From Escherichia phage RB49, in sequence record NC_005066.1: DNA of 64,000 nt; one strand, given 5' to 3'. Position 1 is the stretch's first letter. Each line of letters opens with the position of its first letter. Shown piece by piece: positions 1 to 60,678 of this stretch. A model generated the notes under the pieces. That model was given only the letters and a program-made list of their open reading frames with translations. It did no database searches and was not told where the DNA came from. Position numbers and translations under genes: made by a program.

Positions 1-846
1 ATTCGTTTCTATAGCGATTGTGCATCGGTAGAATACTTTGAAGATAAAAACACCGAAATTTCGTCTACCTCTATGCAGTTTGACAAGTGGCAAGTTAATG
101 TAGGTTCTCGTAAACTGAAAACCTCGTTCACGACCGAATTGATGCAGGATCTTGAGGCAAGCCAAATCAACTCTGAAAACTCTGTAATTGATCTTCTGGC
201 TACTGTTGCTTCCGAAGAGATCAACAAAGATATTATTCAGAAGTTGATCACTGTATCATCTCGCTATAAAATTAAAGGGATCACCCCTGATGGCGTACTT
301 TCTCTCGTTAGCGTTCAGGATGCACCAACACAAGCGCGTGAACTTTACCGCTATGCTTGCGAAATGAGCAATCAAATGTTGCGGACTTCCTCCTTTGCTG
401 GTACATACGTTTTGGCGTCTTCTCGCGTGGTTGGCCTCCTGCAATCTTCCGGTTGGATGGAAGAAACCGACAATGCTCTAAGCGAAGGTCGTCTACGTTG
501 CGGTCTGGAAGTGTACGCAGACACGACAACACCTTTCGATTATATGCTCGTTGGTTGTAAGCACATGATCGGTGATATGGAGAGTGTAGGTTCTCTGTTC
601 TACTCCCCATATACAGAAGCAGACGGCGCTGGCGCGTATAAGAGCGTAATTGACCCTAATAGCTTCCAGCATCATGTAGCTATTATGAATCGTTATTCAC
701 TCTCTGTCAACCCATACACATCAAAAGTTGATCAGGAAGAACACCAGGTCATCAAGGGTGACGATTGGGGTAAAATGGCTGGACGTTCAGAAATGTCCTA
801 CATTTTAGGAATCGAACTGCCACCGCTTGAGATTGACAACGCTTAA
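1..846 (+). CDS. 24: Capsid protein of the gp23/gp24 family, C-terminal part (5' end lies outside the window); position upstream of hoc suggests gp24 head vertex protein
   Basis: Frame is open from base 1 with no stop before the listed Met at 73; sits immediately upstream of the hoc/inh block as gene 24 does in T4. Confidence 0.55.
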   Translation: MRFYSDCASVEYFEDKNTEISSTSMQFDKWQVNVGSRKLKTSFTTELMQDLEASQINSENSVIDLLATVASEEINKDIIQKLITVSSRYKIKGITPDGVLSLVSVQDAPTQARELYRYACEMSNQMLRTSSFAGTYVLASSRVVGLLQSSGWMEETDNALSEGRLRCGLEVYADTTTPFDYMLVGCKHMIGDMESVGSLFYSPYTEADGAGAYKSVIDPNSFQHHVAIMNRYSLSVNPYTSKVDQEEHQVIKGDDWGKMAGRSEMSYILGIELPPLEIDNA

Positions 847-18507: not shown

Positions 18508-18508
18508 A

Positions 18509-18721
18509 TTATAATGCACCATCGAGCAATTGCTCTAAGGTGTATCCTGAATAGTCTTTTTCAATCAGGGTATATTTTCCTACTCGTTTAATCCAGCCAC
18601 GCATTTCAACGTATTCTGCGTAGTTGATGGTGCGAGTTGTTCCATCTTCTAGCAAAGCAGTACCGATTTCGTTAATGCGGTCATAAGTTACGTCGGTAAT
18701 GATGATTTCGATGTTAGCCAT
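18509..18721 (-). CDS. Hypothetical small early protein
   Basis: 70 aa ORF preceded by a promoter cassette and GGAG RBS. Confidence 0.55.
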   Translation of the reverse strand: MANIEIIITDVTYDRINEIGTALLEDGTTRTINYAEYVEMRGWIKRVGKYTLIEKDYSGYTLEQLLDGAL

Positions 18722-18786
18722 TTGATACTCCTTAGTAGTTCGTTTCGGTATGGGTGTATTATGATATACACCCTCTGTTATGTCAA
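18722..18786 (-). promoter_or_regulatory. Early promoter cassette (sigma70-like -35 TTGACA / -10 cATAAT plus conserved leader)
   Basis: Minus strand reads TTGACA-17 bp-CATAAT-ACACCCATACCGAAACGAA-GGAG-ATG; the same architecture recurs more than 20 times in the window. Confidence 0.6.
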
Positions 18787-18792
18787 CAACTT

Positions 18793-18972
18793 TTAGAACA
18801 TTTTTGAAATTAATTCTGCTTTGATTTCGCAGAGAACATCTAAAGATTTCTCGTCACCTGCTTTTGCGGCTTCTGTTTGCATTTTTGAAATGGCTTCAAT
18901 GTCAGTGCAATTATAAGCCGCTTGAACTTTAGCGATTGCGATGATTGCCGATTCGATGGTTAAGTGTTTCAT
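18793..18972 (-). CDS. Hypothetical small early protein
   Basis: 59 aa ORF (MKHLTIESAI...), hand-translated; promoter cassette and RBS upstream. Confidence 0.45.
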   Translation of the reverse strand: MKHLTIESAIIAIAKVQAAYNCTDIEAISKMQTEAAKAGDEKSLDVLCEIKAELISKMF

Positions 18973-19033
18973 GTTTGATTCTCCTTTCGTTTCGGTATGG
19001 GTGCATTATAGGGGATCGGTGACCCCCTGTCAA
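18973..19033 (-). promoter_or_regulatory. Early promoter cassette with palindromic spacer
   Basis: TTGACA, spacer containing GGGGTCACCGATCCCC, TATAAT-like box, conserved leader. Confidence 0.6.
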
Positions 19034-19040
19034 CAACTTT

Positions 19041-19595
19041 TTAGTTATTTTTTAATTGTTCATCTTGCAATAATGCAATCACATGCTGGCGATGTTCTTC
19101 CGATTGAGACACACCGAAAAAGTTTGTTTTGTAGAAATACTCTAATCGGTCTTCTCGTGTGCTCTCTTCCATCATGATCGCGGGTAGTCCGAGATTTCGG
19201 AAACGTCGCTTTTCTGCTGGCGTAAAATCACTGTAATACAACATAGAATCATCATTACAAGCAATGCTAAACTCATCCTTCATAAAGGAGAATATTGCGT
19301 TTAAACGCTGTTTACCGTCCACGATTTCGATCTCATAGCGAGAGCCATCATCAATCTTAGCCATTGCGATAGCACCAACCGGAAAATCATTAATCAGGTT
19401 TTCGATAAACATACGTTTGTTTTCGGTGTCCCATACTAAAGGACGCTGATAATCTGGGTTCATGTTGATATAGCCATCTTCTAACCATGCTTCATAAACA
19501 GAGATAACAAAGTTTTTAGTATTGGTATAGTAACGGCGTTTAGGCGTTAAACGGTTCATGTTATAGTCTCCTGAATGGATCATCACGTAAATCAA
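19041..19595 (-). CDS. DUF262 / ParB-like nuclease-NTPase domain protein
   Basis: 184 aa; DYQRPLVWD and VDGKQRL motifs match the DUF262 signatures (IPxFQRxYxW, DGQQR) known from GmrSD-type proteins. Confidence 0.6.
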   Translation of the reverse strand: MIYVMIHSGDYNMNRLTPKRRYYTNTKNFVISVYEAWLEDGYINMNPDYQRPLVWDTENKRMFIENLINDFPVGAIAMAKIDDGSRYEIEIVDGKQRLNAIFSFMKDEFSIACNDDSMLYYSDFTPAEKRRFRNLGLPAIMMEESTREDRLEYFYKTNFFGVSQSEEHRQHVIALLQDEQLKNN

Positions 19596-19890
19596 TATCT
19601 TTTAAGAACTCATCCCATGAATGGCGGATATTGTTCTTAATTCTCCAGATAAGAGCAGGGATTGAACGCTCTCCCATCTGGAAGTATGGATCATATGATC
19701 CGTATGCCCAATATGCTACTACAATTCCACAATCAGCGCAATAGTATTCTATTTCACTTGCTGGCGACCAAAGTCCATCAATATGATCGGTGATCTTGCT
19801 TTCGATGTTATGGCTATGACAATCAGGGCAACGGATGCAATGACCTTGTTTATCGTAATTTGACGTTAGCGAATACTTAAACAATCTCAT
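19561..19890 (-). CDS. Zinc-ribbon protein
   Basis: 109 aa; CIRCPDCHSH ... YCADCG cysteine pairs; overlaps both neighbours (operon). Confidence 0.5.
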   Translation of the reverse strand: MRLFKYSLTSNYDKQGHCIRCPDCHSHNIESKITDHIDGLWSPASEIEYYCADCGIVVAYWAYGSYDPYFQMGERSIPALIWRIKNNIRHSWDEFLKDIDLRDDPFRRL

Positions 19891-20606
19891 TATAGATCCT
19901 TATTTGCTTCAAATACTGCCTTTGCGAATCCTCGCGGGGTAAGTGACCTGATAGTCTTTGTTTTCGTTCCTTTCCCGCCTAGCTTAGAATGCTGTTTACT
20001 GTACCCTTTATTAATCTGCAAAGGTTTCTTTTCTGGCATTATAAAGCCTTGTCCGGTCCATAAGCAAGTCTTTTTCGGGTACATATCACGGGCGGCAATA
20101 TACTCAGGAAAAGTAGGATGTTTATCATCTTCCGGCAAATAACCGCCATATTCCCACGGATGGAACATATAATCAGGCTTACGCCACATGCTAGAGATAA
20201 CGCTTACAGGATTCTCTATCATGTAGGGAACTCCTATCCATTCACCCAAATAAGCGGTTATTTTAGCTGCCCTTACATCATGAACTTGAATCAATGGTCC
20301 TTGTTCTAGTTTCTTTCGTTCAAAGTGCGCAGCGCCACTAACAGCTAAATTGGTGCACGGTGGGAATGCAAAGATAATATCCGGTTTCCCCCATTCAAGG
20401 TCCATTGCTCTTTCCAGCCAGTTCAAATCAATCCAGGTGTTTACATAGGTAATGTTTGGATGTTCAAATCTGGTATTATATTTTTTGTATGTACCGTGGT
20501 CGCCATCGTCAGCATTAAAGCAGATCACCTTATGACCCGCTTTAGCCCATTCTAACCCCATTATCCCCGACCCGTCAAAGTTGCAGAATATTAATTTTTG
20601 TTTCAT
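19890..20606 (-). CDS. Compact C5-cytosine methyltransferase-like protein
   Basis: 238 aa; motif I-like FDGSGIMG, motif IV-like FPPCTNLAVSGA (Pro-Cys catalytic dipeptide), motif VI-like MIENPV at canonical spacings; only about 100 aa remain where a target-recognition domain would sit. Confidence 0.45.
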   Translation of the reverse strand: MKQKLIFCNFDGSGIMGLEWAKAGHKVICFNADDGDHGTYKKYNTRFEHPNITYVNTWIDLNWLERAMDLEWGKPDIIFAFPPCTNLAVSGAAHFERKKLEQGPLIQVHDVRAAKITAYLGEWIGVPYMIENPVSVISSMWRKPDYMFHPWEYGGYLPEDDKHPTFPEYIAARDMYPKKTCLWTGQGFIMPEKKPLQINKGYSKQHSKLGGKGTKTKTIRSLTPRGFAKAVFEANKDL

Positions 20607-20848
20607 ATACGCCCCTTTAATCCAACACAGATTTTAGAAGGTTCTTTGCCGTGCCACATTAAGTAAAGTCCGTTAATGCGGCCTTGTTTTGTATATGATT
20701 CTTTTCTGATCTTCTTATAGTGTCGTGTTTCCTCTACCGATTGTTTAGAATACCAATCATAAAGGAAGAGGAACAAAGGCCAACCATTAGCAACCTTAAT
20801 GCAGTTATTCAAAAATTCCTTATTTCGTTTAATTAATTTTCTTTTCAC
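20603..20848 (-). CDS. Hypothetical protein
   Basis: 81 aa ORF, overlaps neighbours by 4 nt on each side. Confidence 0.45.
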   Translation of the reverse strand: MKRKLIKRNKEFLNNCIKVANGWPLFLFLYDWYSKQSVEETRHYKKIRKESYTKQGRINGLYLMWHGKEPSKICVGLKGRI

Positions 20849-21096
20849 GCTGCCCCCATTGGTTTGATAGTAACAGAATCTAAAAGACCTTTGTTAGCCA
20901 GTTCGCGGCAAGTTTTCAGATCCGCAACTTCCCAGCCAGCCGCAATCAGGTTATCAATGAGGCTGTTAGCAACTTCTTCGCTCATGAAAGAGCACTGTTT
21001 GCCGATGGTGTAGCGTACACGCTGTAATTTCAGTTTACGGAAGCCTTTAACGTTCAGGTCTTTAGCGATTTTCTTTGCGGTTTCGATGTTAGCCAT
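20845..21096 (-). CDS. Hypothetical protein, first gene of the operon
   Basis: 83 aa ORF with promoter cassette and GGAGAATC RBS upstream. Confidence 0.5.
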   Translation of the reverse strand: MANIETAKKIAKDLNVKGFRKLKLQRVRYTIGKQCSFMSEEVANSLIDNLIAAGWEVADLKTCRELANKGLLDSVTIKPMGAA

Positions 21097-21165
21097 TGTT
21101 TGATTCTCCTAAGTGGTATCTCGTCTTGATGGTTGTATTGTAGGGGAGTTATCCTCCCCTGTCAA
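21097..21165 (-). promoter_or_regulatory. Early promoter cassette with palindromic spacer
   Basis: TTGACA then GGGGAGGATAACTCCCC palindrome; heads the 21096 down to 19041 operon. Confidence 0.55.
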
Positions 21166-21179
21166 CACTTTTTATAAAA

Positions 21180-21347
21180 TTATTTGTTAATTTCTGGTGC
21201 GTTGCTAGGATAGTAACCTTCTTTAACTCCGAGGTATTTCGCAACCATCCCTACAATCTTCTGTGCTACTACAATGTCAAATTTCAGATAATCTTCGCCG
21301 TGGGTTTCAACGATATATGCTTCACATGCTGCTTTAGTCTCGAACAT
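21180..21347 (-). CDS. Hypothetical small protein, duplicate of 25506..25673
   Basis: 55 aa (MFETKAACEAYIVETHGEDYLKFDIVVAQKIVGMVAKYLGVKEGYYPSNAPEINK), near-identical in DNA and protein to the ORF at 25506..25673. Confidence 0.55.
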   Translation of the reverse strand: MFETKAACEAYIVETHGEDYLKFDIVVAQKIVGMVAKYLGVKEGYYPSNAPEINK

Positions 21348-21350
21348 TTT

Positions 21351-21409
21351 GATTCTCCTATTTCGTTTCGGTATGTGTGTATTATAGGGGATCTCCCGAT
21401 CCCCGTCAA
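21351..21409 (-). promoter_or_regulatory. Early promoter cassette with palindromic spacer
   Basis: TTGACg-GGGATCGGGAGATCCCC-TATAAT-conserved leader. Confidence 0.6.
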
Positions 21410-21422
21410 CAACTTTTTTAGA

Positions 21423-21899
21423 TTATTTGCACCACACTGTAATTTTCTTATCATGTTGGTAGTGAATCCATCGAATATCATCTTTATCAATCATGACAGT
21501 AACATACCCATTTACTAGTGATTTGTCAAAACGGTTATGTAACAGTGCAATATATTGAAAGAATGGTTCTTTTGTATTTGAATATATTCCCTTACCATCA
21601 AACGTCATGACATTTTTGTGAACTTTAAATTCATTACGAAGAACAGCCGTCATTGTCCCGTCTTCATTAGTTTTGAGTTTTAATTCGGATTCTTTGTAAA
21701 AATATGCGTCACGGGCTTTACTTTCTTCCCCGTCTTGTACTCTTACTTCACTAGCATAATCACACTGATAGGTCTTATCTACATTTTCGATCTTTTCTTG
21801 TGTCATATCAAAAAGCGGTGCGACCTTTTTCTTGGCCGCGTGTGCTACGTTGGTCATGGACAGTGCTGCAACAACCGCAATAGCAATAATCTTCTTCAT
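21423..21899 (-). CDS. Secreted/periplasmic hypothetical protein
   Basis: 158 aa; N-terminal signal peptide MKKIIAIAVVAALSMTNVAHA. Confidence 0.55.
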   Translation of the reverse strand: MKKIIAIAVVAALSMTNVAHAAKKKVAPLFDMTQEKIENVDKTYQCDYASEVRVQDGEESKARDAYFYKESELKLKTNEDGTMTAVLRNEFKVHKNVMTFDGKGIYSNTKEPFFQYIALLHNRFDKSLVNGYVTVMIDKDDIRWIHYQHDKKITVWCK

Positions 21900-21962
21900 A
21901 GTATTCTCCTTTTGTTTTGTGTTGGGAGTATCTTAGCGACACTCCCGTTATTTTTCAAATCT
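21900..21962 (-). promoter_or_regulatory. Early promoter cassette, GGGAGT/ACTCCC-palindrome class
   Basis: TTGAAA-17 bp-TAAGAT with inverted repeat GGGAGTgtcgcTAAGATACTCCC spanning the -10. Confidence 0.45.
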
Positions 21963-21964
21963 TT

Positions 21965-22246
21965 TTATTCGTGATTAGTTTCGATGTTGTGCATTTTGCA
22001 CCAGTTCAACCAATCGCCCAGATCTTGATAGTTGATGCTTTTATCTGCTGCCATCGTTTTTGTCTTGATACCCATATGTGCGTTATGAGTAAGCATTTTT
22101 ACAGTGAACTCAATTTTATCACCTTTAGCTTTAACATCAACCAGTTTGGTCCACTGGCTACCAGCGCCGCGAATGTTCATACCAACGATGTTTCCGATGT
22201 ATGCTTCTTTGTTTTTCAGGATTTCGGTTGCTTTGATGAATTTCAT
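21965..22246 (-). CDS. Hypothetical protein
   Basis: 93 aa ORF with promoter cassette and RBS. Confidence 0.5.
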   Translation of the reverse strand: MKFIKATEILKNKEAYIGNIVGMNIRGAGSQWTKLVDVKAKGDKIEFTVKMLTHNAHMGIKTKTMAADKSINYQDLGDWLNWCKMHNIETNHE

Positions 22247-22308
22247 TTTTGATTCTCCAGTTCGTTTCGGTATGGGTGTATTATGCTATGTTCTTACTTT
22301 GGTGTCAA
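22247..22308 (-). promoter_or_regulatory. Early promoter cassette
   Basis: TTGACA ... CATAAT ... conserved ACACCCATACCGAAACGAA leader. Confidence 0.6.
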
Positions 22309-22315
22309 CAACTTT

Positions 22316-22585
22316 TTAGATATTTTCAGAAATAAATTTTAAAACTTGACGTAAATGTTTCTCATCTTTGATAGTCGCCGGAAGTTCTTCTTTTACTTCC
22401 TGTGCAAGATAGATATTTCCGTTCCAAGTGAAAGATCCGTCTTCGTTTACGCGATAGCTGAACATCCACTCGCAATCATTTTCGATTTCATATACACACA
22501 GAAGGGTGTAATCGTTAAAGCTAGTGATTTCAAGGTCGAAGCCGTGACGTTTTGCAAAGTTGGTAGTGGTTTTAGTCAGTGCCAT
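22316..22585 (-). CDS. Hypothetical protein
   Basis: 89 aa ORF with promoter cassette and RBS. Confidence 0.5.
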   Translation of the reverse strand: MALTKTTTNFAKRHGFDLEITSFNDYTLLCVYEIENDCEWMFSYRVNEDGSFTWNGNIYLAQEVKEELPATIKDEKHLRQVLKFISENI

Positions 22586-22654
22586 TGTTTGATTCTCCTA
22601 AGTGGTATCTCGTCTTGATGGGTGTATTATGCTATAGTCGTGATCTGGTGTCAA
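22586..22654 (-). promoter_or_regulatory. Early promoter cassette
   Basis: TTGACA ... CATAAT ... conserved leader; preceded on the minus strand by a terminator hairpin. Confidence 0.6.
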
Positions 22655-22684
22655 CAACTTTTTTAAATTTTTGGAAATAAAAAA

Positions 22685-22702
22685 GCCGACACTAAGGTCG
22701 GC
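22685..22702 (-). terminator. Stem-loop terminator (stem-loop half of the cassette)
   Basis: gccgac-actaag-gtcggc followed by a T-run on the minus strand; the same hairpin recurs at 23189..23206. Confidence 0.55.
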
Positions 22703-22707
22703 ACATT

Positions 22708-23019
22708 TTAAAAATTCTTGCTATATATGCAAGCCTCATAATCTAGAGGATGACCGCCAATCCTACCAGGCTTAATATTCCAACCGCATCGATATTTTCT
22801 GACCATGCTAACCGTTTCGGTTCTTAGAGCATTTCTTTGCAAATCATACCCCCTAAATTCTTGTCTATAAGGACAGTCCGCTTTGCAAGTTGGCGGTTCT
22901 ACGTCATTTAGCGGGTCGGAAGCAGTTGGCTTTATTATCAATTCTTTGTTTGCAATAATCATAAGCACATCCCATTGAAGACAATTTAACATCTTCGCAA
23001 TAAGTGTTGAATCCGTCAA
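22708..23019 (-). CDS. Hypothetical protein (start uncertain; overlaps 22904..23095 in another frame)
   Basis: 103 aa ORF; the upstream half overlaps the better-supported 22904..23095 gene, so the true start may be internal or non-ATG. Confidence 0.3.
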   Translation of the reverse strand: MTDSTLIAKMLNCLQWDVLMIIANKELIIKPTASDPLNDVEPPTCKADCPYRQEFRGYDLQRNALRTETVSMVRKYRCGWNIKPGRIGGHPLDYEACIYSKNF

Positions 23020-23095
23020 ATACGATCACTTCGTATTTGACTCCATCAGCGATAGCTTTTACTTTATACCATCCATGCTTGTATAAAATCTTCAT
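22904..23095 (-). CDS. Hypothetical small protein
   Basis: 63 aa with GAGGAAA RBS and promoter cassette upstream. Confidence 0.5.
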   Translation of the reverse strand: MKILYKHGWYKVKAIADGVKYEVIVFDGFNTYCEDVKLSSMGCAYDYCKQRIDNKANCFRPAK

Positions 23096-23157
23096 CTTTA
23101 TTTCCTCAATCTCGTTTCGATGGGTGTATTATGCTATAGGCTAGACCAGGTTGTCAA
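23096..23157 (-). promoter_or_regulatory. Early promoter cassette
   Basis: TTGACA-17/18 bp-CATAAT-ACACCCATCGAAACGA. Confidence 0.6.
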
Positions 23158-23188
23158 CAACTTTTTTAATTTTTTGGGAAATAAAAAA

Positions 23189-23206
23189 GCCGACGCTAAG
23201 GTCGGC
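23189..23206 (-). terminator. Stem-loop terminator
   Basis: gccgac-gctaag-gtcggc with T-run on the minus strand, after the 23215..23523 gene. Confidence 0.55.
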
Positions 23207-23214
23207 TAATAAAA

Positions 23215-23523
23215 TCATTTGGACAAATAATCATTCTGTGCAATCCGGTCGGCGTATGCTGGTGTTATGTCAATCGCCAGCACTTTAACGCGTGCTTTCT
23301 TGCGACCTGGGTTTTCTCGTAACCAGTGCTCATGACCGTGAACATTTTTATACTTTGATGCTTCTTCAAATGTACGGATCGGACCTGGGTAATCAGCGTA
23401 AAGGATCTCTAGGTCTTCGGTGATGTAAAAATATACATCGTAATTACTGTTCTCTAGTTTAAGCAGAGAGTTGCGAAATTGTGGTAAATTCTCGCGGGTA
23501 AATTCAACTACAAGATTTTTCAT
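23215..23523 (-). CDS. HxHW-family small protein, paralogue A
   Basis: 102 aa; shares YxYITEDL...HGHEHW...VKVLAIDI pattern with five other ORFs in this region. Confidence 0.55.
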   Translation of the reverse strand: MKNLVVEFTRENLPQFRNSLLKLENSNYDVYFYITEDLEILYADYPGPIRTFEEASKYKNVHGHEHWLRENPGRKKARVKVLAIDITPAYADRIAQNDYLSK

Positions 23524-23548
23524 AGTGATATCCTCATTCAGATAGATT

Positions 23549-23569
23549 AAAAGGGGCTTAACGCCCCCC
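23549..23569 (-). terminator. Rho-independent terminator
   Basis: Hairpin ggggc-ttaa-cgcccc with flanking T-run on the minus strand. Confidence 0.5.
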
Positions 23570-23574
23570 GTATA

Positions 23575-23862
23575 TTAAAACAGTCCTTCCTGTACACCGT
23601 AGTAGAGTTCGTCACTGATAATTTCATTAATGCGACGGTGTGCATATTCCTGATTTGCGAAGTTATCAGCAAGTTCTACTTTAGTTTCGCCGTCATGAGT
23701 CCATTTAGTGATAACTTTACCATCTGCAAATTTGAAGTTGAACTCTTTAGCTACTGCATCGCGTACCAGACGTGCGAACTTGTTGTTACGGATGGCATTA
23801 TCGGTTTCGTGTGCAGCGTGAGCGAATTTGTTAACTTTCAGAGTGATAGTAATGTATGCCAT
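23575..23862 (-). CDS. Hypothetical protein, paralogue of 26891..27220
   Basis: 95 aa; VRDAVAKEFNFKF resembles VRKALAKEFNTKI in the 26891..27220 product. Confidence 0.5.
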   Translation of the reverse strand: MAYITITLKVNKFAHAAHETDNAIRNNKFARLVRDAVAKEFNFKFADGKVITKWTHDGETKVELADNFANQEYAHRRINEIISDELYYGVQEGLF

Positions 23863-23937
23863 AATTTGATTCTCCTAGTTAGAAAGTGTATCTCGTTTCG
23901 ATGGGGATATTATGCTATATCCCCGATCCGGTGTCAA
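23863..23937 (-). promoter_or_regulatory. Early promoter cassette
   Basis: TTGACA ... GGGGATAT-AGCATAAT ... conserved leader. Confidence 0.55.
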
Positions 23938-23943
23938 CACTTT

Positions 23944-24237
23944 TTATAAAATAATTTTTTGATATTTTTCTATGATGTTTGTGTAGGTCACGTCAACCGC
24001 TAGCACCGTTGCTTCGAATCCACCGTTTAGCCAATGGCTATGATCATGATCGTGAAAGAAACCTAGACCAGTACGAAGACCTTCTTTATATTCTGCGCGT
24101 ACATTCAGTTTGTCGTCGATAAACAGATAAAACCATGAATTTTTACTAGGATTGATGATACAACCTTTCAGATTAGGAAGAATATCACGACTAAGAATAA
24201 ACTTATCACCTACTTTGAACATAATATTAGTCCTCAC
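23944..24237 (-). CDS. HxHW-family small protein, paralogue B
   Basis: 97 aa; FYLFIDDKL ... HDHSHW ... TVLAVDV. Confidence 0.55.
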   Translation of the reverse strand: MRTNIMFKVGDKFILSRDILPNLKGCIINPSKNSWFYLFIDDKLNVRAEYKEGLRTGLGFFHDHDHSHWLNGGFEATVLAVDVTYTNIIEKYQKIIL

Positions 24238-24628
24238 TTATAAGGTCAAACCAATTGTTTTTCGCATAATGCTTAATGCGTGCTTGATCTGCTTCCGCTG
24301 GTGATAGATTCCATGCAACCACTACAACTTCTGACGCATCGTCATCCGTTTCTGATACCCAATGATTGTGATTCATACAGTTATTTGCTATCGAGTGAGC
24401 AAATGATTTCATCACTGGAGACGTATAATCATAGTAACGGATTTTCAGATTTTCATCAACGTACAAGTAGATCGTATACGGCTTATATTCAGTAACCAGT
24501 AACAGACAGTTACGCAATTCTGGGAAAATCTTTTTAGTTAATTTCATTTTATAATCCTCGGTCTCGGCTATAGTACACGGTACGCCATACAATTTCATGT
24601 TTCGTGTCGCTCCAGCACACGATCTCAT
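24227..24628 (-). CDS. HxHW-family small protein, paralogue C (start probably internal Met)
   Basis: 133 aa ORF; LYVDENLKIRYYDY ... HNHW ... VVVVAW. Confidence 0.5.
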   Translation of the reverse strand: MRSCAGATRNMKLYGVPCTIAETEDYKMKLTKKIFPELRNCLLLVTEYKPYTIYLYVDENLKIRYYDYTSPVMKSFAHSIANNCMNHNHWVSETDDDASEVVVVAWNLSPAEADQARIKHYAKNNWFDLISED

Positions 24629-24788
24629 TTACTCTTAAATCTTTGTTATCAACAAAAGATGAACATTGTGACGCTTCTTTCATCATTTTATCTGCTGTTT
24701 TCTCATCAAATACAGCACAGATTTCTTTATACACTCGATAATCTTTGAATTGACTCTGAATACCCATAATTAACACCATTCCAACCAA
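24549..24788 (-). CDS. Hypothetical protein, paralogue of 24727..24990
   Basis: 79 aa ORF; SQFKDYRVYKEICAVFDEKTADKMMKEASQCSSF parallels the neighbouring gene. Confidence 0.45.
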   Translation of the reverse strand: MVGMVLIMGIQSQFKDYRVYKEICAVFDEKTADKMMKEASQCSSFVDNKDLRVNEIVCWSDTKHEIVWRTVYYSRDRGL

Positions 24789-24990
24789 TTGTTTTTGAGA
24801 AAACGTTTATCCACTGTTGAGTGTAGCATGTTTCTTTCCATGATACAATACGAGTGGAATAATGGTTTTTGTTTCCAGAAAAGGACGGGCATTTTGATGC
24901 ATCTTCCATCATCTTTTCGGCGAACTCTGGTGCGTATACTCGCAGGATCTGTTGATATGCTTTGTATTCTTTAAATTTGCTCATAATCAT
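24727..24990 (-). CDS. Hypothetical protein, paralogue of 24549..24788
   Basis: 87 aa ORF; SKFKEYKAYQQILRVYAPEFAEKMMEDASKCPSF. Confidence 0.45.
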   Translation of the reverse strand: MIMSKFKEYKAYQQILRVYAPEFAEKMMEDASKCPSFSGNKNHYSTRIVSWKETCYTQQWINVFSKTIGWNGVNYGYSESIQRLSSV

Positions 24991-25249
24991 TCACTACCTT
25001 ATCAGCTTCTTTTGTTGTTTTTACATCAACTGCGATAACTCGTAAAGGTTCGTCATGGTTCCACCAGTGGTCATGAATATCAGCTTGTGATTTATCACCA
25101 AAGGAATCACGAATATCATTTTTACATTTATAGCTAATGTGACCTTCATAGTCAACATAAAGGTAATTATCGAAAATCGGCGTTTTTAAGATCATACCGA
25201 AAAATCTTTCTTTGTGTGTCTTATCCAGCGTTGCAGTAATTCGCATCAT
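24971..25249 (-). CDS. HxHW-family small protein, paralogue D
   Basis: 92 aa; YLYVDYEGH ... HDHWW ... RVIAVDV. Confidence 0.55.
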   Translation of the reverse strand: MMRITATLDKTHKERFFGMILKTPIFDNYLYVDYEGHISYKCKNDIRDSFGDKSQADIHDHWWNHDEPLRVIAVDVKTTKEADKVVNDYEQI

Positions 25250-25261
25250 AATATATTCCTC

Positions 25262-25441
25262 TTAGAAAGGGATGGTCATTTCTTGAGCTTGTACATTCTC
25301 GTTAGGATTAAACTTCATCCAGCCGATATTGTCTACCAGCATATGCACATTTTTATCATATCCTACGTGAGTAGTCAACACTAAATGTGCTTTACCTTCA
25401 ATGATGAGTTCCATGTACTTCTGAACTTCGATAGCTTTCAT
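25262..25441 (-). CDS. Hypothetical small protein, first gene of a six-gene operon
   Basis: 59 aa ORF (MKAIEVQKYM...), hand-translated; promoter cassette and GGAGAATC RBS upstream. Confidence 0.4.
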   Translation of the reverse strand: MKAIEVQKYMELIIEGKAHLVLTTHVGYDKNVHMLVDNIGWMKFNPNENVQAQEMTIPF

Positions 25442-25443
25442 TT

Positions 25444-25502
25444 TGATTCTCCGTTTGTTGTCTTGATGGGAGTATCTTACTACTCCATTTAATCATTGTC
25501 AA
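25444..25502 (-). promoter_or_regulatory. Early promoter cassette, GGGAGTA/TACTCCC-palindrome class
   Basis: TTGACA-17 bp-TAAGAT with inverted repeat GGAGTAGTAAGATACTCCC. Confidence 0.5.
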
Positions 25503-25505
25503 CTA

Positions 25506-25673
25506 TTATTTGTTAATTTCTGGTGCGTTGCTCGGATAGTAACCTTCTTTAACACCTAGATATTTTGCAACCATTCCGGTGATCTTCTGTGCTACTACGA
25601 TATCGAATTTCAGGTAGTCTTCACCGTGGTTTGCTACAATGTATGCTTCGCATTCTGCTTTAGTCTGGAACAT
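25506..25673 (-). CDS. Hypothetical small protein, duplicate of 21180..21347
   Basis: 55 aa from the internal Met of the listed 25506..25709 ORF (the 5' extension covers the promoter). Confidence 0.55.
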   Translation of the reverse strand: MFQTKAECEAYIVANHGEDYLKFDIVVAQKITGMVAKYLGVKEGYYPSNAPEINK

Positions 25674-25736
25674 TTTTGATTCTCCTATATCTCGTTGGTA
25701 TGTGTGCATTATAGGGGATCACCGATCCCCTGTCAA
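25674..25736 (-). promoter_or_regulatory. Early promoter cassette with palindromic spacer
   Basis: TTGACA-GGGGATCGGTGATCCCC-TATAAT-conserved leader. Confidence 0.6.
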
Positions 25737-25741
25737 CAACT

Positions 25742-26092
25742 TTATAATGCTTTATATGCGTATTTCATAAATTTGTCTGCCACTTCATTGGCATGTTCAG
25801 ATTCTACGCCTGATTCGAGAACAATAGCTAGGTCGGTTTCGTCATTCCCGCCGTACCAATGATTTGATGTTCGATTTTTTTCAATTGGAAATTGGTCACT
25901 TTTATCTGTGCGACAAAATACATCTAAATGCTCGTCGATGTAAAAGATCCAATCTTCATAAAGAATAACGGTATTAGCAAGATTTTTATTGCCTTCAACG
26001 AAAGGTTCCGCGACAAATAGCTTAGTTTGTTCCATAGTAATTTCCTCAAAATTATACAGTTTCGTAAACTTCCCAATGTTCAGCGCCAACAC
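25742..26092 (-). CDS. HxHW-family small protein, paralogue E (likely starts at internal Met near 26035)
   Basis: 116 aa ORF; FYIDEHLDVF ... SNHWYGG ... LAIVLESG. Confidence 0.5.
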   Translation of the reverse strand: MLALNIGKFTKLYNFEEITMEQTKLFVAEPFVEGNKNLANTVILYEDWIFYIDEHLDVFCRTDKSDQFPIEKNRTSNHWYGGNDETDLAIVLESGVESEHANEVADKFMKYAYKAL

Positions 26093-26243
26093 GCTTAACG
26101 AAAAGGTTTTCTTTGATGTTATTCATAAACGTCTGGATGGATTTAATGCGGTTTGAAGGTTTCCATTCTTCGTTGGCATTGCGTCGATACATCATAACAT
26201 TACCAGTTCGCTTATATTCAGCAACCATTTTAAGACCACACAT
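26052..26243 (-). CDS. Hypothetical small protein
   Basis: 63 aa ORF; possible promoter (TTGACA at 26316..26321) upstream. Confidence 0.4.
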   Translation of the reverse strand: MCGLKMVAEYKRTGNVMMYRRNANEEWKPSNRIKSIQTFMNNIKENLFVKRVGAEHWEVYETV

Positions 26244-26300
26244 AATATTATCCTCAATTTGTGGGAGAGTATTACCCCTCCCAATGATTGTTATGTTATA

Positions 26301-26621
26301 TCACACAAAATGGCGTGTCAATGCTTCTTTTGCGGTTCCGCTAAGACTTTCAATCTCGCCTGGCATAACATCAACCGCCAGAACTTCTACAACATCCTCG
26401 GACCCTAACCAGTGAGTATGGCCTTTGTAGAACTTGATAACCAGACCACCTTCCTCGTCCCATTTAACGCTATCGCTAGCCCACCACACATCACCGTCGA
26501 TAAAGTTGATGTAAAGCACACTACGCCACATTGAATTAATTACTTTCAATACTGCGCCTTTCATCTCTTCCACGGTATGGTCTTCCATTTTGAAGACCTC
26601 ACCTACCTGAACTTTTGCCAT
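26301..26621 (-). CDS. HxHW-family small protein, paralogue F
   Basis: 106 aa; YINFIDGDVW ... GHTHW ... VEVLAVDV. Confidence 0.55.
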   Translation of the reverse strand: MAKVQVGEVFKMEDHTVEEMKGAVLKVINSMWRSVLYINFIDGDVWWASDSVKWDEEGGLVIKFYKGHTHWLGSEDVVEVLAVDVMPGEIESLSGTAKEALTRHFV

Positions 26622-26638
26622 TTAGTCACCTCTCTTTA

Positions 26639-26818
26639 TTACATAACAATCACGCCAGCCGTTGAAAGTTGATGTTTCAACTGAGCATTTTCTGCTACCG
26701 TCAAATCAATGATTTCTTGTGACGCTGCAATCATATAGCCATTGGTGATATTGTTTTGCATCAGTTCAATGGTTTCTTCGTTGTAGCGGATTTTAGCGAT
26801 GATTTCGTTGAAGTTCAT
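26639..26818 (-). CDS. Hypothetical small protein
   Basis: 59 aa from the internal Met (MNFNEIIAKI...) of the listed ORF; the 5' extension overlaps the promoter cassette. Confidence 0.5.
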   Translation of the reverse strand: MNFNEIIAKIRYNEETIELMQNNITNGYMIAASQEIIDLTVAENAQLKHQLSTAGVIVM

Positions 26819-26881
26819 AATTGATTCTCCTAGTTCGTTTCGGTATGTGTGTAGTATAGGGGATCGGTGATCCCCTGTCAA
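26819..26881 (-). promoter_or_regulatory. Early promoter cassette with palindromic spacer
   Basis: TTGACA-GGGGATCACCGATCCCC-TATACT-ACACACATACCGAAACGAA. Confidence 0.6.
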
Positions 26882-26890
26882 CAACTTTTT

Positions 26891-27220
26891 TTAAAGTTTT
26901 TCCATGATAACGGTCATAATTACATCTTCTGCGCGAGCTGTCAGATTATCAGCGTCAGCATGTGGGCGGTTGGTTGTTACAGAGATAACACCGTTGCGCA
27001 CTGGTTTGATATTGATATCAAGATGATCCGCGAAACGTTCGTGATCCGCGAAACGTTCGCCAGTTACAGAATGAATTTTGGTGTTAAATTCTTTTGCCAG
27101 TGCCTTGCGAACTTCACGAATCAGGATAGCGTTTTTCAGTTGGTTCTCCGCGCTCATGGTCTTCTGGGTGTTCATGGTTCCGTCGAAGTCAATCATTGGC
27201 AGCGTTACGATGTATTTCAT
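26891..27220 (-). CDS. Hypothetical protein, paralogue of 23575..23862, containing an in-frame 18-bp tandem duplication
   Basis: 109 aa; ERFADH-ERFADH encoded by a tandem 18-mer at 27025..27060. Confidence 0.5.
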   Translation of the reverse strand: MKYIVTLPMIDFDGTMNTQKTMSAENQLKNAILIREVRKALAKEFNTKIHSVTGERFADHERFADHLDINIKPVRNGVISVTTNRPHADADNLTARAEDVIMTVIMEKL

Positions 27221-27294
27221 TTTTGATTCTCCGTTTAAGAAAGTGTGTTTCGTTTTGATGTGTGTAGTATAGGGGATACGTGATCCCCTGTCAA
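27221..27294 (-). promoter_or_regulatory. Early promoter cassette
   Basis: TTGACA-GGGGATCACGTATCCCC-TATACT-leader. Confidence 0.55.
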
Positions 27295-27307
27295 CAACTT
27301 TTTTGAA

Positions 27308-27652
27308 TTATTTTTTCATGAGCTTAATGGCTTCTTCCATAGCCAGCACATTTCGATAGTTAGGGTATCGTGTTAGATCGTCATACATTCGCTTAAGGGT
27401 GGAAACTTCCTCAAACTCTGGGTTTTCTAGATACAGTTGAACAAATTGTTTCTCTACCATCTCTGCTTTTAGCTTGTCTGCTTGTTCCTGTTCATATGAT
27501 TTAGTTGGACCCAACACCAACAAAATGATAAAGGTGATCAACGGGCTAATGATCAACGATAGGAGAACATAACCGATAACGCTACGGTTTAAACGGCTTG
27601 CGTACATGCCTACTAGGAAAACAAAAAGGATATAGATAAACAGAAAGAACAT
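27308..27652 (-). CDS. Small membrane protein
   Basis: 114 aa; two hydrophobic helices at the N-terminus. Confidence 0.5.
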   Translation of the reverse strand: MFFLFIYILFVFLVGMYASRLNRSVIGYVLLSLIISPLITFIILLVLGPTKSYEQEQADKLKAEMVEKQFVQLYLENPEFEEVSTLKRMYDDLTRYPNYRNVLAMEEAIKLMKK

Positions 27653-27659
27653 ATAATGG

Positions 27660-28133
27660 TTACTCCTTATTTTCTCGCTCGTACTTTTCGAAATAAAATT
27701 CTACTGGCTGGTCATGAATTGACAGCAAGCCAAAGCGTTTAGCCGCTCGCAATCCCATATTGCGCTGAATGTACTTCTGGAAGTTCTCGCGTATACACTT
27801 ACGCCAGTATTCTAAGCCCATACAGCTTTTATAAAGATTGCATTGCACACACGCCGGATTCATGTTATCAAGTATATCATGTTCCGGTTTATGCATTCCT
27901 ACAACCTTATACTTCCACGATCCATCATCATTACGGGCAATTCGTCCATTTTCATCATAGACTACCTTTGAGCGTCGCAATACTGGTTTGATGTGGTCTG
28001 CGTGCCAGCGATCCCCTAGTTCCTCGCCACAATAGGCACAACGTCCACCATATTTCATTTTCAGGATCTGGCGTTGCTCTTTCTTTGACAATTTTTTAGG
28101 TTTAGGGGCTTTCGCCCCTTCATTATCACACAT
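27660..28133 (-). CDS. HNH endonuclease (free-standing, homing-endonuclease-like)
   Basis: 157 aa; CAYCGEEL ... HADHIKP ... CVQCN HNH zinc-finger motif; start overlaps the DNA ligase stop. Confidence 0.7.
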   Translation of the reverse strand: MCDNEGAKAPKPKKLSKKEQRQILKMKYGGRCAYCGEELGDRWHADHIKPVLRRSKVVYDENGRIARNDDGSWKYKVVGMHKPEHDILDNMNPACVQCNLYKSCMGLEYWRKCIRENFQKYIQRNMGLRAAKRFGLLSIHDQPVEFYFEKYERENKE

Positions 28134-29628
28134 CGAATACCTCTTTTACTGTATTTGCAGTGGTCTTGTCGTAGCGAATACGTTTGATGATTGGGAGAAA
28201 TAAAGAGAACTCCGGTTCATCTTCTTTACGTGATTTGCTGCGGATATACCCGTTGCATGTCATCTCAATGACTTTTCCAATCAGGTTATGACGGTCAGTC
28301 CATAACATTTCTCGGTCGAGTTCATTTCGACGATCGAACGGAATTACACGTTCAGTACCATCATCACCTTTTTCGGTTGTAGTGTCGGTTAATCCCGATC
28401 CGGTGTTAGTCATCATTCGTCCGCACGCACTACGGACAGTAAAACCGCCTACCTTATTGGGGTCTTTACTATGCGGATATACATCAACAATTTCCGCGTC
28501 GAAGTCAATCACTTCTTTAAATTTAACCTGATCTTTACTACGGCGATCTTCAAATACACCATGTAAATTTTTAAGGATAATACCTTCTAAGCCCATGTTT
28601 ACATAGCGATGATATACTTCGCGAGCTTCATCTATATTGTTAACTACAGTGTTTTCGATTATCTGAACACGAGGATCGTTAAGTTCTTCAACAATCTGTT
28701 TTAGTTCTTCGAATCGATCTTTATATTGCTTCGTTGCTTTCTCATTTCCGTAATACACATCACGGTCGATAACATCCCAGACAGTATAAACAATACATTG
28801 GGCTTCTTCTTTTGGAATAGTTCCTTTAAGTGATTTGTTGAGGATACCATTTCCAGTCTGACGGTCTGCAACAACGGATTCTTTCACTGCTTCCGCTACT
28901 GGCGTTAATGGCATTTCCTCTTCTTCAAATATCCATGACAGAGTACCATCATAAACGCTCTCAACGAAGTTCTGCGCTGGTGTTTGCGAAAGGGTAGGCA
29001 TATATACCAATTCGCCATCTAGAACAATTCCACGGCCTCGTAGACGCTCTAAAACCGCAAACAAATCATCAAGCCCTTGATAGGTATTACCTGAGCGGGT
29101 ATAGATTGCTAATGTTTCCCCGTCAATATCAGCCATACCACGAGCGCCATCGCTTTTAAGTTGTGCATACGCCGGATATTTGATATTGGCAATGGTCTTA
29201 TCAGAACATGACGATGCAAGGTGGCACGGCTGCTGGGGGATCAGTTTCTTCCATACCTTGTTTGCAGTGGTAGCGGAACAACCGCATTCCAGGTCACGAT
29301 TCAGGACCATCATTGCAACTTTAGCATCATCTTCTGACAAGCAAGTCAGAGTATCGGTAACTAGCTGTAATGCTGCATTACCAGTTACTTGACGTGTTGC
29401 AAGTTTATTTTTAAAGACCTGCAATGCACCGGATAAAGACAATACAGACGAATAGCGAGACGGTTTATCGTATTTCTTTACGCCAAACGTAACCTGTTTG
29501 CAATATGCCAGATAAAAGCATTCTTTCAGCGTTTCATTGCTCGCGGATTCTTTCAGAATCTTTTCTTTCAGCGATGTTTTGTCTGTTGCTGCAAGCTGAT
29601 TAATGATATTAAGAATTGACATTTTCAC
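28126..29628 (-). CDS. 30: ATP-dependent DNA ligase
   Basis: 500 aa; adenylation motif LKSDGAR (KxDGxR) and ligase motifs; T4 gp30 is a similar size. Confidence 0.8.
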   Translation of the reverse strand: MKMSILNIINQLAATDKTSLKEKILKESASNETLKECFYLAYCKQVTFGVKKYDKPSRYSSVLSLSGALQVFKNKLATRQVTGNAALQLVTDTLTCLSEDDAKVAMMVLNRDLECGCSATTANKVWKKLIPQQPCHLASSCSDKTIANIKYPAYAQLKSDGARGMADIDGETLAIYTRSGNTYQGLDDLFAVLERLRGRGIVLDGELVYMPTLSQTPAQNFVESVYDGTLSWIFEEEEMPLTPVAEAVKESVVADRQTGNGILNKSLKGTIPKEEAQCIVYTVWDVIDRDVYYGNEKATKQYKDRFEELKQIVEELNDPRVQIIENTVVNNIDEAREVYHRYVNMGLEGIILKNLHGVFEDRRSKDQVKFKEVIDFDAEIVDVYPHSKDPNKVGGFTVRSACGRMMTNTGSGLTDTTTEKGDDGTERVIPFDRRNELDREMLWTDRHNLIGKVIEMTCNGYIRSKSRKEDEPEFSLFLPIIKRIRYDKTTANTVKEVFDV

Positions 29629-35500: not shown

Positions 35501-35508
35501 CTGCTTTT

Positions 35509-37981: not shown

Positions 37982-38149
37982 TCACTTTTTAACACAAAAG
38001 AACTTAGTATTTCTGTTTATTTCGCTATCCTGCTGCAATTCCTGCACAGCTTCAAAACAATTTTGATATGATGAAAACTCTACGCTGGTAACAGTTCCTT
38101 TATTATATACGCCGACGCTAACGGAAAGCAATAACCATAATGTAGCCAT
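37982..38149 (-). CDS. Small protein with hydrophobic N-terminus, paralogue 1
   Basis: 55 aa (MATLWLLLSVSVGVYNKG...), hand-translated; TAATG overlap with the upstream paralogue. Confidence 0.4.
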   Translation of the reverse strand: MATLWLLLSVSVGVYNKGTVTSVEFSSYQNCFEAVQELQQDSEINRNTKFFCVKK

Positions 38150-38322
38150 TAGTTCACCTTTTGTTTTTCAACGCAATATAGATTCATAAAGCGTTTATTG
38201 TCTTCGCGGATAATCTCGCGAGCTTTAACGCAATCCTGCTTTGTTGCAAACTCAATGCTTGACATATTTCCGTAATTATACATTGAATTGCTTATTGCAA
38301 TCAATAACCATACAGTAGCCAT
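38149..38322 (-). CDS. Small protein with hydrophobic N-terminus, paralogue 2
   Basis: 57 aa (MATVWLLIAISNSMYNYG...), hand-translated; tandem duplicate of the preceding gene. Confidence 0.4.
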   Translation of the reverse strand: MATVWLLIAISNSMYNYGNMSSIEFATKQDCVKAREIIREDNKRFMNLYCVEKQKVN

Positions 38323-59662: not shown

Positions 59663-59911
59663 TTATTGGCGCATAGAAGCCCCTGAATCGCATTTTGACG
59701 CTGTATGATGAAAACAGGTAGCGTACCAGTCATCGGCTTGTTTGTCTTCGTCAGAAAACGCGTAATTTCGTTGTATGCCGTTTTCTACTTTGACAAGTGC
59801 AATAGCTGTTTCTGGAAGATCAATCAATCGGACAAAATCACCATCTTCCCACTCTACACGAGCAATATCATAGCCCATCTCAAAGTATACAATCGCTTGT
59901 TCTAATTTCAT
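59663..59911 (-). CDS. Hypothetical protein
   Basis: 82 aa ORF. Confidence 0.45.
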   Translation of the reverse strand: MKLEQAIVYFEMGYDIARVEWEDGDFVRLIDLPETAIALVKVENGIQRNYAFSDEDKQADDWYATCFHHTASKCDSGASMRQ

Positions 59912-60237
59912 TCTGGAAACTTCCCGTAAACATTCTCTGCCAGCTTACGTGCATCTTTTACAATATCTTTCATATAATGACTATAATTTTTAGCTAGATC
60001 AATGATGCAATCAACAAAGAAGTAATAGCGTCGCAGTGCTACCAGCTCAACATCTTCAAGATGACCATTTTCTCCAATCGCTGAAATATGTTTAAATTCC
60101 TTTCGGATCGCGTCCATCGCTACATTAACTTCTTTTATAATATCTTTCGTATTATATGCACCTCGACTAATCAAAATTTTGGTTAGGTCTTCTGCTTTTT
60201 CATGAAAGTTGTCAATTTCAAACTCGATCATAATCAC
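59908..60237 (-). CDS. Hypothetical protein, paralogue of 60346..60678
   Basis: 109 aa; C-terminal ENVYGKF parallels ENIFGKF in the next gene. Confidence 0.45.
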   Translation of the reverse strand: MIMIEFEIDNFHEKAEDLTKILISRGAYNTKDIIKEVNVAMDAIRKEFKHISAIGENGHLEDVELVALRRYYFFVDCIIDLAKNYSHYMKDIVKDARKLAENVYGKFPE

Positions 60238-60345
60238 CTCTCATAGTTTCACGCTGTTGTGTCAACATTTTTTCGTGGTTTACTAATTCTATACATTGTA
60301 ATAGCATAACCAGTGAAATTTTCAATGATTCATCATCTTTCATAA

Positions 60346-60678
60346 TCAAAATTTACCGAAAATATTCTCTGTCATAATTCTTGCTTCGTCGATTATTTTC
60401 GTCATGTTCATGGTGTAGTTATGACCATTTAGTGCCTTAATAACAACGAGCAAGGAATCTAAAAACACTCGATACCGGGTATATTCTACGCTATTTGTGA
60501 ATACCGATGTTTTCTCTACTTTATCGATCAGATAGCCTAAAGCCGATAGCGCCTCGTTTACTTCCCTTGTTACTTTATCGGCGCTAAACAACACCGGATA
60601 AAGACGCGGTGTGATTAACCGCGCTGCCTCTTTCAATTCGGTCGCTTTCCATGATTCATATTTGTCATAGTTAAACAT
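60346..60678 (-). CDS. Hypothetical protein, paralogue of 59908..60237
   Basis: 110 aa ORF. Confidence 0.45.
   Translation of the reverse strand: MFNYDKYESWKATELKEAARLITPRLYPVLFSADKVTREVNEALSALGYLIDKVEKTSVFTNSVEYTRYRVFLDSLLVVIKALNGHNYTMNMTKIIDEARIMTENIFGKF

Follow-up and report, generated by a model that had tools for sequence, protein, structure and literature searches.

We analysed a 64,000-nucleotide (nt) stretch of Escherichia phage RB49 (NC_005066.1; the whole stretch is called the window below), in which two small open reading frames (ORFs) on the minus strand, copy A and copy B, each encode a protein of 55 amino acids (aa). The best overall explanation, and very probably the right one, is that they are old paralogues in a hyperplastic early region rich in the promoter and hairpin cassettes known as PeSLs, and that this region is reshuffled by homologous recombination among its dispersed repeats. 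A preliminary description of the window, made from its letters alone, had taken this pair and four others as a sign of ongoing duplication and cassette shuffling; the shuffling is correct and already published, while the duplication appears to be old. Orthology to the RB49 ORF numbering was assigned through co-linear BLAST mapping. The region and the two genes are:

18700..27660, minus strand: hyperplastic region HPR3 of RB49-type phages, from alt to the ORF212 HNH / DNA ligase, with ~30 small early ORFs and 13 PeSLs
21180..21347, minus strand: 55-aa gene copy A, orthologue of RB49 ORF191, phrog_8009
25506..25673, minus strand: 55-aa gene copy B, orthologue of RB49 ORF205, phrog_8009

Both ORFs are present as first described and are clearly homologous: our repeat search of the window joined them as family D9 (172 nt at 86%), and 50 out of 55 residues are identical in the proteins (91%, E 6e-35). 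They had been called almost identical in DNA across the coding and flanking sequence. The homology stands, but near-identity is an overstatement because 24 of the 168 bases differ (144/168 or 85.7% identity in a global alignment), and the flanks are alike upstream only. Identity was 50% beyond 85 nt upstream of the ATG, 77.5% over the 85 nt from the UP/-35 element to the ATG, 85.7% in the coding sequence, and ~52%, which is background, downstream of the stop codon. In the multi-genome alignment the A/B homology begins at the AT-rich tract before the -35 box and ends 5 nt past the stop codon. The PeSL before copy A is nearer to the PeSL at 26881 (82%) than to the PeSL before copy B (78%); therefore, the upstream likeness reflects membership in the PeSL family and not a pair-specific extension of the duplication. 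For the same reason, the proposal that the promoter was co-duplicated, with the two PeSLs forming a unique pair, is unsupported.

The divergence of copies A and B points to an old paralogue pair with both copies under purifying selection. We counted 18 synonymous differences (over ~34 synonymous sites) and 6 non-synonymous ones, with a pS of 0.53, a synonymous divergence (dS) of 0.93, a non-synonymous divergence (dN) of 0.047 and a dN/dS of 0.05. The synonymous sites are thus near saturation, whereas orthologues of the same copy differ between genomes at no more than ~3% of sites. Across the 12 fetched relatives used for the lineage comparison, 37 diagnostic sites separated the A and B lineages cleanly. 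The 55-aa gene was detected by tblastn in 64 phage records, namely 57 of the genus Krischvirus (the same 57 that match the region as a whole) and 7 siphoviruses. All 57 Krischvirus genomes keep at least one copy: a single copy in 7 and a pair in 50, three copies in none. The 50 genomes, which include three named species, have their copies at the same two loci. Because the A and B lineages are separate and both copies occur in 50 out of 57 genomes, either the duplication is older than the radiation of the genus as sampled, or diverged donors supplied the two alleles. The claim of ongoing duplication in this genome does not survive these results, nor the 20–40% identity of the other pairs, and neither the dS nor the filling of both loci in several species fits a recent segmental or tandem duplication. 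Deletions and gene conversion show that, at the population level, the two existing copies still recombine with each other; no new duplication was seen. The presence of at least one copy in every sampled Krischvirus hints at a needed but redundant early function.

Homologues of the 55-aa gene in siphoviruses (Escherichia phage swi2, a Swiduovirus, Salmonella phages SeSz-2, D10 and Pu29, and Escherichia phage Bas81) have 70–72% aa identity. These hosts of the gene have genomes of 45–47 kb and are unrelated to T4-type phages, and the gene adjoins the terminase gene. The possibility that the swi2 homologue travelled together with a PeSL was rejected, as its upstream region holds an unrelated promoter, which implies that the coding sequence would have been transferred horizontally on its own.

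2501-2656 in Escherichia phage swi2: 55-aa homologue behind an unrelated promoter

The best of five predicted structures of the 55-aa protein was confident (pLDDT 91.8) and two of the five were poor; the model gave no fold match. A wide homologue search with the family recovered only 6 clusters in 5.8 billion proteins.

A megablast of positions 20500-28500 matched 57 phage records at 93–98% identity, every one of them a Krischvirus (RB49-like T4-type coliphages). The top match was Shigella phage Sf20 (97.3% identity across 93% of the query), in which the corresponding genes are annotated as 'similar to RB49 gp185 ... gp212' and are flanked by the Alt ADP-ribosyltransferase on one side and by an HNH endonuclease and the DNA ligase gp30 on the other. 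The window has the same gene order, alt – small ORFs 185..212 – gp30, its nucleotide identity to genomes of the RB49 group is high, and all genes of 18.5–28 kb lie on the minus strand. By synteny and identity, then, the window belongs to an RB49-like T4-type coliphage of the genus Krischvirus, and the pair sits in the hyperplastic early region between alt and the DNA ligase.

16391-18442: alt, which borders the hyperplastic region

Modular shuffling mediated by PeSLs (promoter-early stem-loops), which are concentrated in hyperplastic regions, has been proposed and in part demonstrated for RB49 and phi1 at this same locus, as has the formation of mini-circles (Arbiol et al. 2010, PMC2839356; see also Comeau et al. 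2014, PMC4122927). In that work PeSLs are strong early promoters and efficient terminators, with promoter and terminator/attenuator activity in vivo for PeSL206/205, PeSL193/192 and PeSL211/210 of phi1/RB49, and crossover between PeSLs yields mini-circles detected by inverse PCR (PMC2839356). The published examples from the locus are ORFan192, the ORF191-194 mini-circle and the PeSL193/192 and PeSL206/205 promoters, and T4-type recombination is stated to require <50 bp of homology (PMC2839356).

Our repeat search returned eight overlapping families (D1-D8) of intergenic repeats of 51–79 nt, with 6–10 copies each. Each repeat has the minus-strand layout aaaaagttg-TTGACA-17 nt-TATAAT-acacccataccgaaacgaa-GGAGAAtcaaa-ATG, in which the -35 box is preceded by an AT-rich tract and the start codon by a conserved leader that includes a Shine-Dalgarno sequence, all in intergenic position (aaaaagttgTTGACA ... 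ataccgaaacgaa..ggagaatcaaaATG). The near-consensus sigma70 hexamers are oriented with the downstream gene: between 18 and 29 kb the minus strand holds 10 sites that agree with the consensus at 11 or 12 of the 12 positions and have a 17-nt spacer, the plus strand holds none, and dinucleotide shuffles gave an expectation of 0.18; the whole window has 20 sites at this level of agreement. Out of the 23 PeSLs of the window, 16 have a G/C hairpin with a 6–8-bp stem, either in the spacer (e.g. GGGGATCggtGATCCCC) or enclosing the -10 box (e.g. GGGAGTAgtaagaTACTCCC), and three others have a separate terminator hairpin upstream. The hairpins are stable (dG -11 to -21 kcal/mol, z down to -5), and differing stems occur at the same positions (GGGGATC/GATCCCC, GGGAGTA/TACTCCC and GCGGGGA/TCCCCGC). 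The elements show every defining feature of PeSLs that can be tested on sequence, and the activities of PeSLs are on record for their orthologues. Four of them border the two 55-aa genes:

21348..21439, minus strand: PeSL before copy A, with an AT-rich UP element, -35 TTGACG at 21409-21404, -10 TATAAT at 21386-21381 and Shine-Dalgarno GGAGAA
25674..25766, minus strand: PeSL before copy B (PeSL206/205 of Arbiol et al.), with -35 TTGACA at 25736-25731, spacer hairpin GGGGATCggtGATCCCC and -10 TATAAT at 25713-25708
21090..21179, minus strand: PeSL downstream of copy A, before ORF190, of the spacer-hairpin class (GGGGAGgataaCTCCCC); the A/B homology stops here
25442..25505, minus strand: PeSL downstream of copy B, before ORF204, of the class with a hairpin overlapping the -10 box (GGAGTAgtaagaTACTCC); the A/B homology stops here

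Copies A and B both stand behind spacer-hairpin PeSLs, and the one before copy A has its hairpin, GGGGATC..GATCCCC, inside the 17-nt spacer. The PeSL at 25736 is the orthologue of PeSL206/205, whose promoter activity is reported for phi1/RB49 (PMC2839356). The repeat pair D10 (21061-21181 / 22550-22670) corresponds to PeSL190/191 and PeSL194/195, the crossover behind the published four-gene ORF191-194 mini-circle.

At ORF190, ORF194 and ORF198 the likeness among PeSLs does not stop at the start codon but takes in a few codons of the gene (21061-21111, 22550-22600 and 23842-23877; D10 and D14); all three proteins begin MA..., and the start ATGGC is common to ORF190 and ORF194. This suggests that PeSL crossovers may sometimes extend into coding sequence and produce N-terminal chimeras. 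Two further PeSL clusters, of three or four elements each, lie at 35440-36290 and 62680-63760; they are mostly of the class with a hairpin overlapping the -10 box (GGGAGTA..TACTCCC) and mark other hyperplastic segments of the genome.

The evidence for shuffling came from a BLASTN comparison of 18000-29500 with the 12 relatives. We took a PeSL interval to run from 30 nt before the -35 box to 75 nt after it, so that the intervals cover 12% of the region, and 10 out of 18 distinct indel breakpoints fell inside them (binomial P=1e-5). Examples are the ORF186 cassette (18762/18974), ORF192 (21427/21965), ORF191-192 (21187/21965), ORF195/196 (22702/23109), ORF211 (27315) and ORF210-211 (26908). A more distant view is given by a metagenomic relative, a Krischvirus-like phage (ERZ27235406, contig k119_4708; ligase at 72% and ORF212 at 87% aa identity) with a syntenic ORF212-to-alt region and the same GGGGATC..GATCCCC PeSLs. 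There the gene families are permuted (212 - x - 193 - 206a - 190 - 188 - 206b - 198 - 201/202 - 194 - x - 209 - x - alt), with two ORF206-like genes and no 55-aa gene. The cassette shuffling of the preliminary description is borne out by these breakpoints and by this permuted order.

The two 55-aa genes themselves have recombined. Phages Cognac and FL04 each have a single hybrid 55-aa gene between ORF206 and ORF190, and the 3.5 kb between the copies (21965-25440) occurs nowhere in either genome and is present in the other 55.

21417..25505: segment gone from Cognac and FL04, about 4.1-4.3 kb, comprising ORF192-ORF204 plus one 55-aa copy

In the Cognac gene, sites -56 to -14 are of B type and those from -3 on of A type, so that the crossover lies in the Shine-Dalgarno region common to both copies, between -14 and -3. 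In the FL04 gene the change to A type has already occurred at -52, only -56 and the sites upstream of it being of B type, which puts the crossover between -56 and -52, in the common UP/-35 sequence. Because the junctions differ, the two deletions are independent. These hybrids show that the A/B repeat served as the substrate for the loss of a ~4.3-kb, 13-gene block. A paralogous coding repeat, and not PeSLs alone, was therefore the crossover site at least twice in nature, and the double loss of the block means that most of the region is dispensable. Shorter exchanges were also recorded: the B copy of phage Brandy, now without copy A, has six consecutive A-type sites (+51..+75), the B copy of OZ035808 (a Krischvirus RB49-species assembly) is A-type at -3 and +7, and copy A of the window has one B-type site at +37. 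Such patterns indicate that conversion tracts occur between copies A and B.

One cassette inside the lost segment stands out:

21423..21964, minus strand: ORF192-like cassette encoding a 158-aa protein with a signal peptide, with its own weak PeSL (-35 TTGAAA at 21958)

Most relatives lack this cassette. The 158-aa protein has a Sec-type signal peptide (MKKIIAIAVVAALSMTNVAHA), and only its N-terminal half resembles the version of MIZ6-type phages (79% nt). The C-terminal half had no blastn (nucleotide) match in 50,697 phage records, a protein-level search not having been run; because of this missing match, the gene may be a mosaic or a novel allele of the cassette studied by Arbiol et al. A 252-aa protein encoded elsewhere in the window (61925-62683) matches the LprI (lysozyme inhibitor, PF07007) domain at E 1e-5 and shows a weak blastp similarity (E 0.007) to this 158-aa protein.

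We picture the region as a string of small accessory 'ORFan' genes in which each gene or short group stands behind one PeSL, a ~100-bp cassette in which a near-consensus sigma70 promoter with an AT-rich UP element is combined with a G/C-stem hairpin (attenuator or terminator), a conserved leader and a Shine-Dalgarno sequence. Copies A and B would each be expressed from their own PeSL of the same hairpin subclass. Since PeSLs and paralogous coding sequences are both dispersed direct repeats, the homologous recombination system of the phage would occasionally cross over between two PeSLs or between two paralogues. Such crossovers would delete cassettes (releasing a reciprocal mini-circle), insert or reorder them, or lead to gene conversion; on the mini-circle side, only the deletion product is visible here, in the Cognac and FL04 haplotypes. 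Two origins are conceivable for the duplicates: PeSLs on concatemeric genomes may have undergone unequal crossing-over, or a mini-circle with a homeologous allele may have integrated. The small proteins could be early host-takeover or anti-defence accessories, and two copies could provide redundancy or dosage.

The second of these origins can be put in a stronger form, a Campbell-type integration instead of a duplication within the genome: a PeSL mini-circle of ~4 kb from a diverged phage, with a homeologous 55-aa allele, would have recombined with the resident allele and left direct repeats flanking the ORF192-204 block. Cognac and other phages with one copy would then have excised the block, unless one of them represents the ancestral state. 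We consider this possible, though unlikely. Mini-circles with ORFs of this region are documented (PMC2839356), the copies exactly bracket the block lost as a unit in Cognac and FL04, their 14% divergence exceeds that among orthologues, and the occurrence of the gene in unrelated siphoviruses indicates that it moves horizontally. Against this, the Cognac and FL04 junctions differ, so at most one of them can be ancestral, and the 6 clusters recovered included no donor phage in which an A- or B-like allele stands in another context. The present data are equally compatible with unequal crossing-over followed by divergence.

A bolder proposal is that the ORF191/ORF205 repeat acts as a recurrent excision and integration 'hinge', by which the 4.3-kb, 13-gene block flips in and out as a mini-circle, with four of six paralogues of a further family (the HxHW proteins, described below) on board; these proteins, with no known fold relative and with conserved H-x-H-W and acidic residues, would be a new diversifying effector family. 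We regard this as doubtful. If it were true, phage populations would be heterogeneous in their arsenal of early host-takeover or anti-defence proteins.

The preliminary description had listed four further pairs, which turned out to be real, though diverged, paralogues:

23575..23862, minus strand: ORF198 orthologue, phrog_7474, distant paralogue of 26891-27220
26891..27220, minus strand: ORF210 orthologue, phrog_7474
24549..24788, minus strand: ORF201 orthologue (annotated start further in), phrog_8471, tandem paralogue of ORF202
24727..24990, minus strand: ORF202 orthologue, phrog_8471
37982..38322, minus strand: tandem 55- and 57-aa paralogues, phrog_5579, between nrdA-like (38558-40801) and nrdB-like (36806-37966) genes
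59908..60678, minus strand: adjacent 109- and 110-aa paralogues, phrog_9457

Each pair falls in a single PHROG (7474, 8471, 5579 and 9457), and the Smith-Waterman score of every pair exceeded those of all 2000 shuffles, with p values of 5e-14 for ORF201/202, 3e-13 for 37982/38149, 8e-7 for 59908/60346 and 2e-4 for 23575-23862 / 26891-27220. Their identities are 37–40% or less. The weakest pair is ORF198/210 (about 20%), which have in common only a 24-aa block, R.VR.A.AKEFN.K, plus the shared PHROG, and pairwise BLASTP between the two was not significant. Pfam returned nothing above threshold for the ten paralogues, and the PHROGs concerned are all families of unknown function.

We also found a family that the preliminary description had not listed. 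Six ORFs within 23.2–26.6 kb (ORF197, 199, 200, 203, 206 and 208) encode proteins of 92–106 aa with the common motif YLYIDe..L.V ... H-x-H-W ... VLAVDV..eAD:

23215..23523, minus strand: HxHW member 1, ORF197
23944..24222, minus strand: HxHW member 2, ORF199
24227..24547, minus strand: HxHW member 3, ORF200 (AlphaFold model with pLDDT 91 and pTM 0.83)
24971..25249, minus strand: HxHW member 4, ORF203
25742..26035, minus strand: HxHW member 5, ORF206, with the first His replaced (SNHW)
26301..26621, minus strand: HxHW member 6, ORF208

PHROGs splits these proteins into five families (9345, 17255, 15972, 15965 and 16486) joined by weak cross-hits, and the relation of the six is visible only through these cross-hits together with the shared motif and profile. 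A hidden Markov model of the extended alignment recovered exactly these six in the window, and the profile of the six had only 19 representatives among 1.84 billion proteins, while a single-sequence search with ORF200 found only near relatives. Metagenomic relatives have the family too, both in arrays and in the form of a fusion: a 2.1-kb metagenomic contig (SRR8048117) contains five HxHW domains, two of which are fused in one 203-aa protein. The confident AlphaFold model had no significant fold match in the PDB, so that the window holds a six-paralogue small-protein family without an assigned structure.

The gene order phrog_7474 - HxHW - 55-aa occurs twice (ORF210..208/206..205 and ORF198..197..191), with three families colinear, as it would if one ancient multi-gene segmental duplication had made several pairs at once. 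We nevertheless rejected such a single event, which we hold to be very improbable, because the divergence is unequal (91% aa identity in the 55-aa pair, about 20% in ORF198/210 and 16–23% for ORF197 versus ORF206/208) and the intervening genes are dissimilar, ORF207 and 209 showing no similarity to ORF193-196. In addition, ORF197 is closer to ORF200 than to any other HxHW paralogue, ORF206 and ORF208 included.

Still less credit can be given to a recent or ongoing duplication with barely diverged copies. The high protein identity of the 55-aa pair and the same-class promoter-like flank upstream of both copies would suit it, but the number of synonymous differences far exceeds that between orthologues, and the two lineages stay apart at their diagnostic sites in the genus. 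A mis-assembled or falsely duplicated repeat, for which only the general risk that repeats pose to assemblers could be invoked, is next to impossible with 14% divergence, differing flanks and the same two-copy arrangement in about 50 independently assembled genomes. The occurrence of both copies in 50 out of 57 Krischvirus genomes therefore argues against an artefact and a recent event alike, and the concern that the duplicates were an assembly collapse or duplication artefact can be set aside.

Old paralogues reshuffled by recombination among dispersed repeats thus remain the preferred reading, and several observations weigh against it. Eight of the 18 breakpoints lie outside PeSLs, so other recombination routes act too. 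The closest relative of the PeSL before copy A is not the PeSL before copy B. The tandem pairs ORF201/202 and 37982/38149 have no PeSL between their members, and PeSLs therefore fail to explain their origin. The Cognac and FL04 deletions rest on public assemblies. Finally, the paralogues belong to no Pfam family and had no significant fold match, which leaves them outside any such protein family.

The cassettes of this region resemble the gene cassettes of integrons, which are promoterless ORFs bounded by attC sites, in forming small single-gene arrays with imperfect, hairpin-prone repeats, in having circular intermediates, and in being gained, lost and reordered. They differ in that each PeSL cassette carries its own promoter and that recombination appears to be general homologous; unlike for integrons, we know of no integrase or site-specific recombinase for PeSL cassettes, and saw none. 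In the modular evolution of Botstein and Campbell and at the IP loci of T-even phages, accessory genes are likewise swapped by homologous recombination at short conserved intergenic sequences, but the linkers here would be functional promoter/terminator units. The T-even IP elements have T4-type early promoters and weaker AT-rich hairpins and are described as analogues of PeSLs, not homologues (PMC2839356).

The closest system is the PeSL system of Arbiol et al. and Comeau et al. itself, with the same genus, locus (ORF185-212, alt to gene 30), composite motif and PeSL-bounded indels. Our finding is largely ordinary, as it is already explained by published PeSL-mediated shuffling at the locus where this was described, and its main value is negative: the mechanism is known, and the 'near-identical duplicate' is an old, selected paralogue pair. 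The two papers nowhere mention paralogues or duplications ('paralog' occurs 0 times, and the sole match to 'duplicat' is 'duplicate cultures'; PMC2839356 and PMC4122927), and a literature search on paralogy in RB49 hyperplastic regions returned nothing relevant. The modest additions of this study are therefore the paralogue inventory, the ORF191/205 coding repeat as a recombination substrate and deletion hinge, and the six-member family.

Rfam and tRNA scans of the whole window found no element. Other diverged paralogue pairs, each with Pfam assignments, lie outside the hyperplastic region: two ADP-ribosyltransferases (the ORF183-like protein at 15489-16313 and Alt at 16391-18442, PF03496); two divergently transcribed T4_baseplate (PF12322) proteins at 8180-8809 and 8880-9650; and the phosphatase domain of the PseT PNK and a stand-alone HAD_PNKP protein, at 31728-32627 and 36333-36809. 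Four to six in-frame copies of a unit of ~43 nt, encoding G-[IVL]-x-E-I-A-T-Q-x-E, occur at 50485-51362 (D11 and D17), probably in a tail-fibre-type gene, and a tandem 45-nt direct repeat with 78% identity lies inside a coding region at 4818-4907 (D16). Finally, we observed long-range inverted repeats (I1, I2 and I4; 1533-1765 versus 54000-54080 and 53958-54002 versus 63756-63800): I2 is a shared terminator-like hairpin (AAAAAGCCGACC..GGTCGGCTT) in opposite orientations, and I1 and I4 are 35–81-nt matches at 71–73%.

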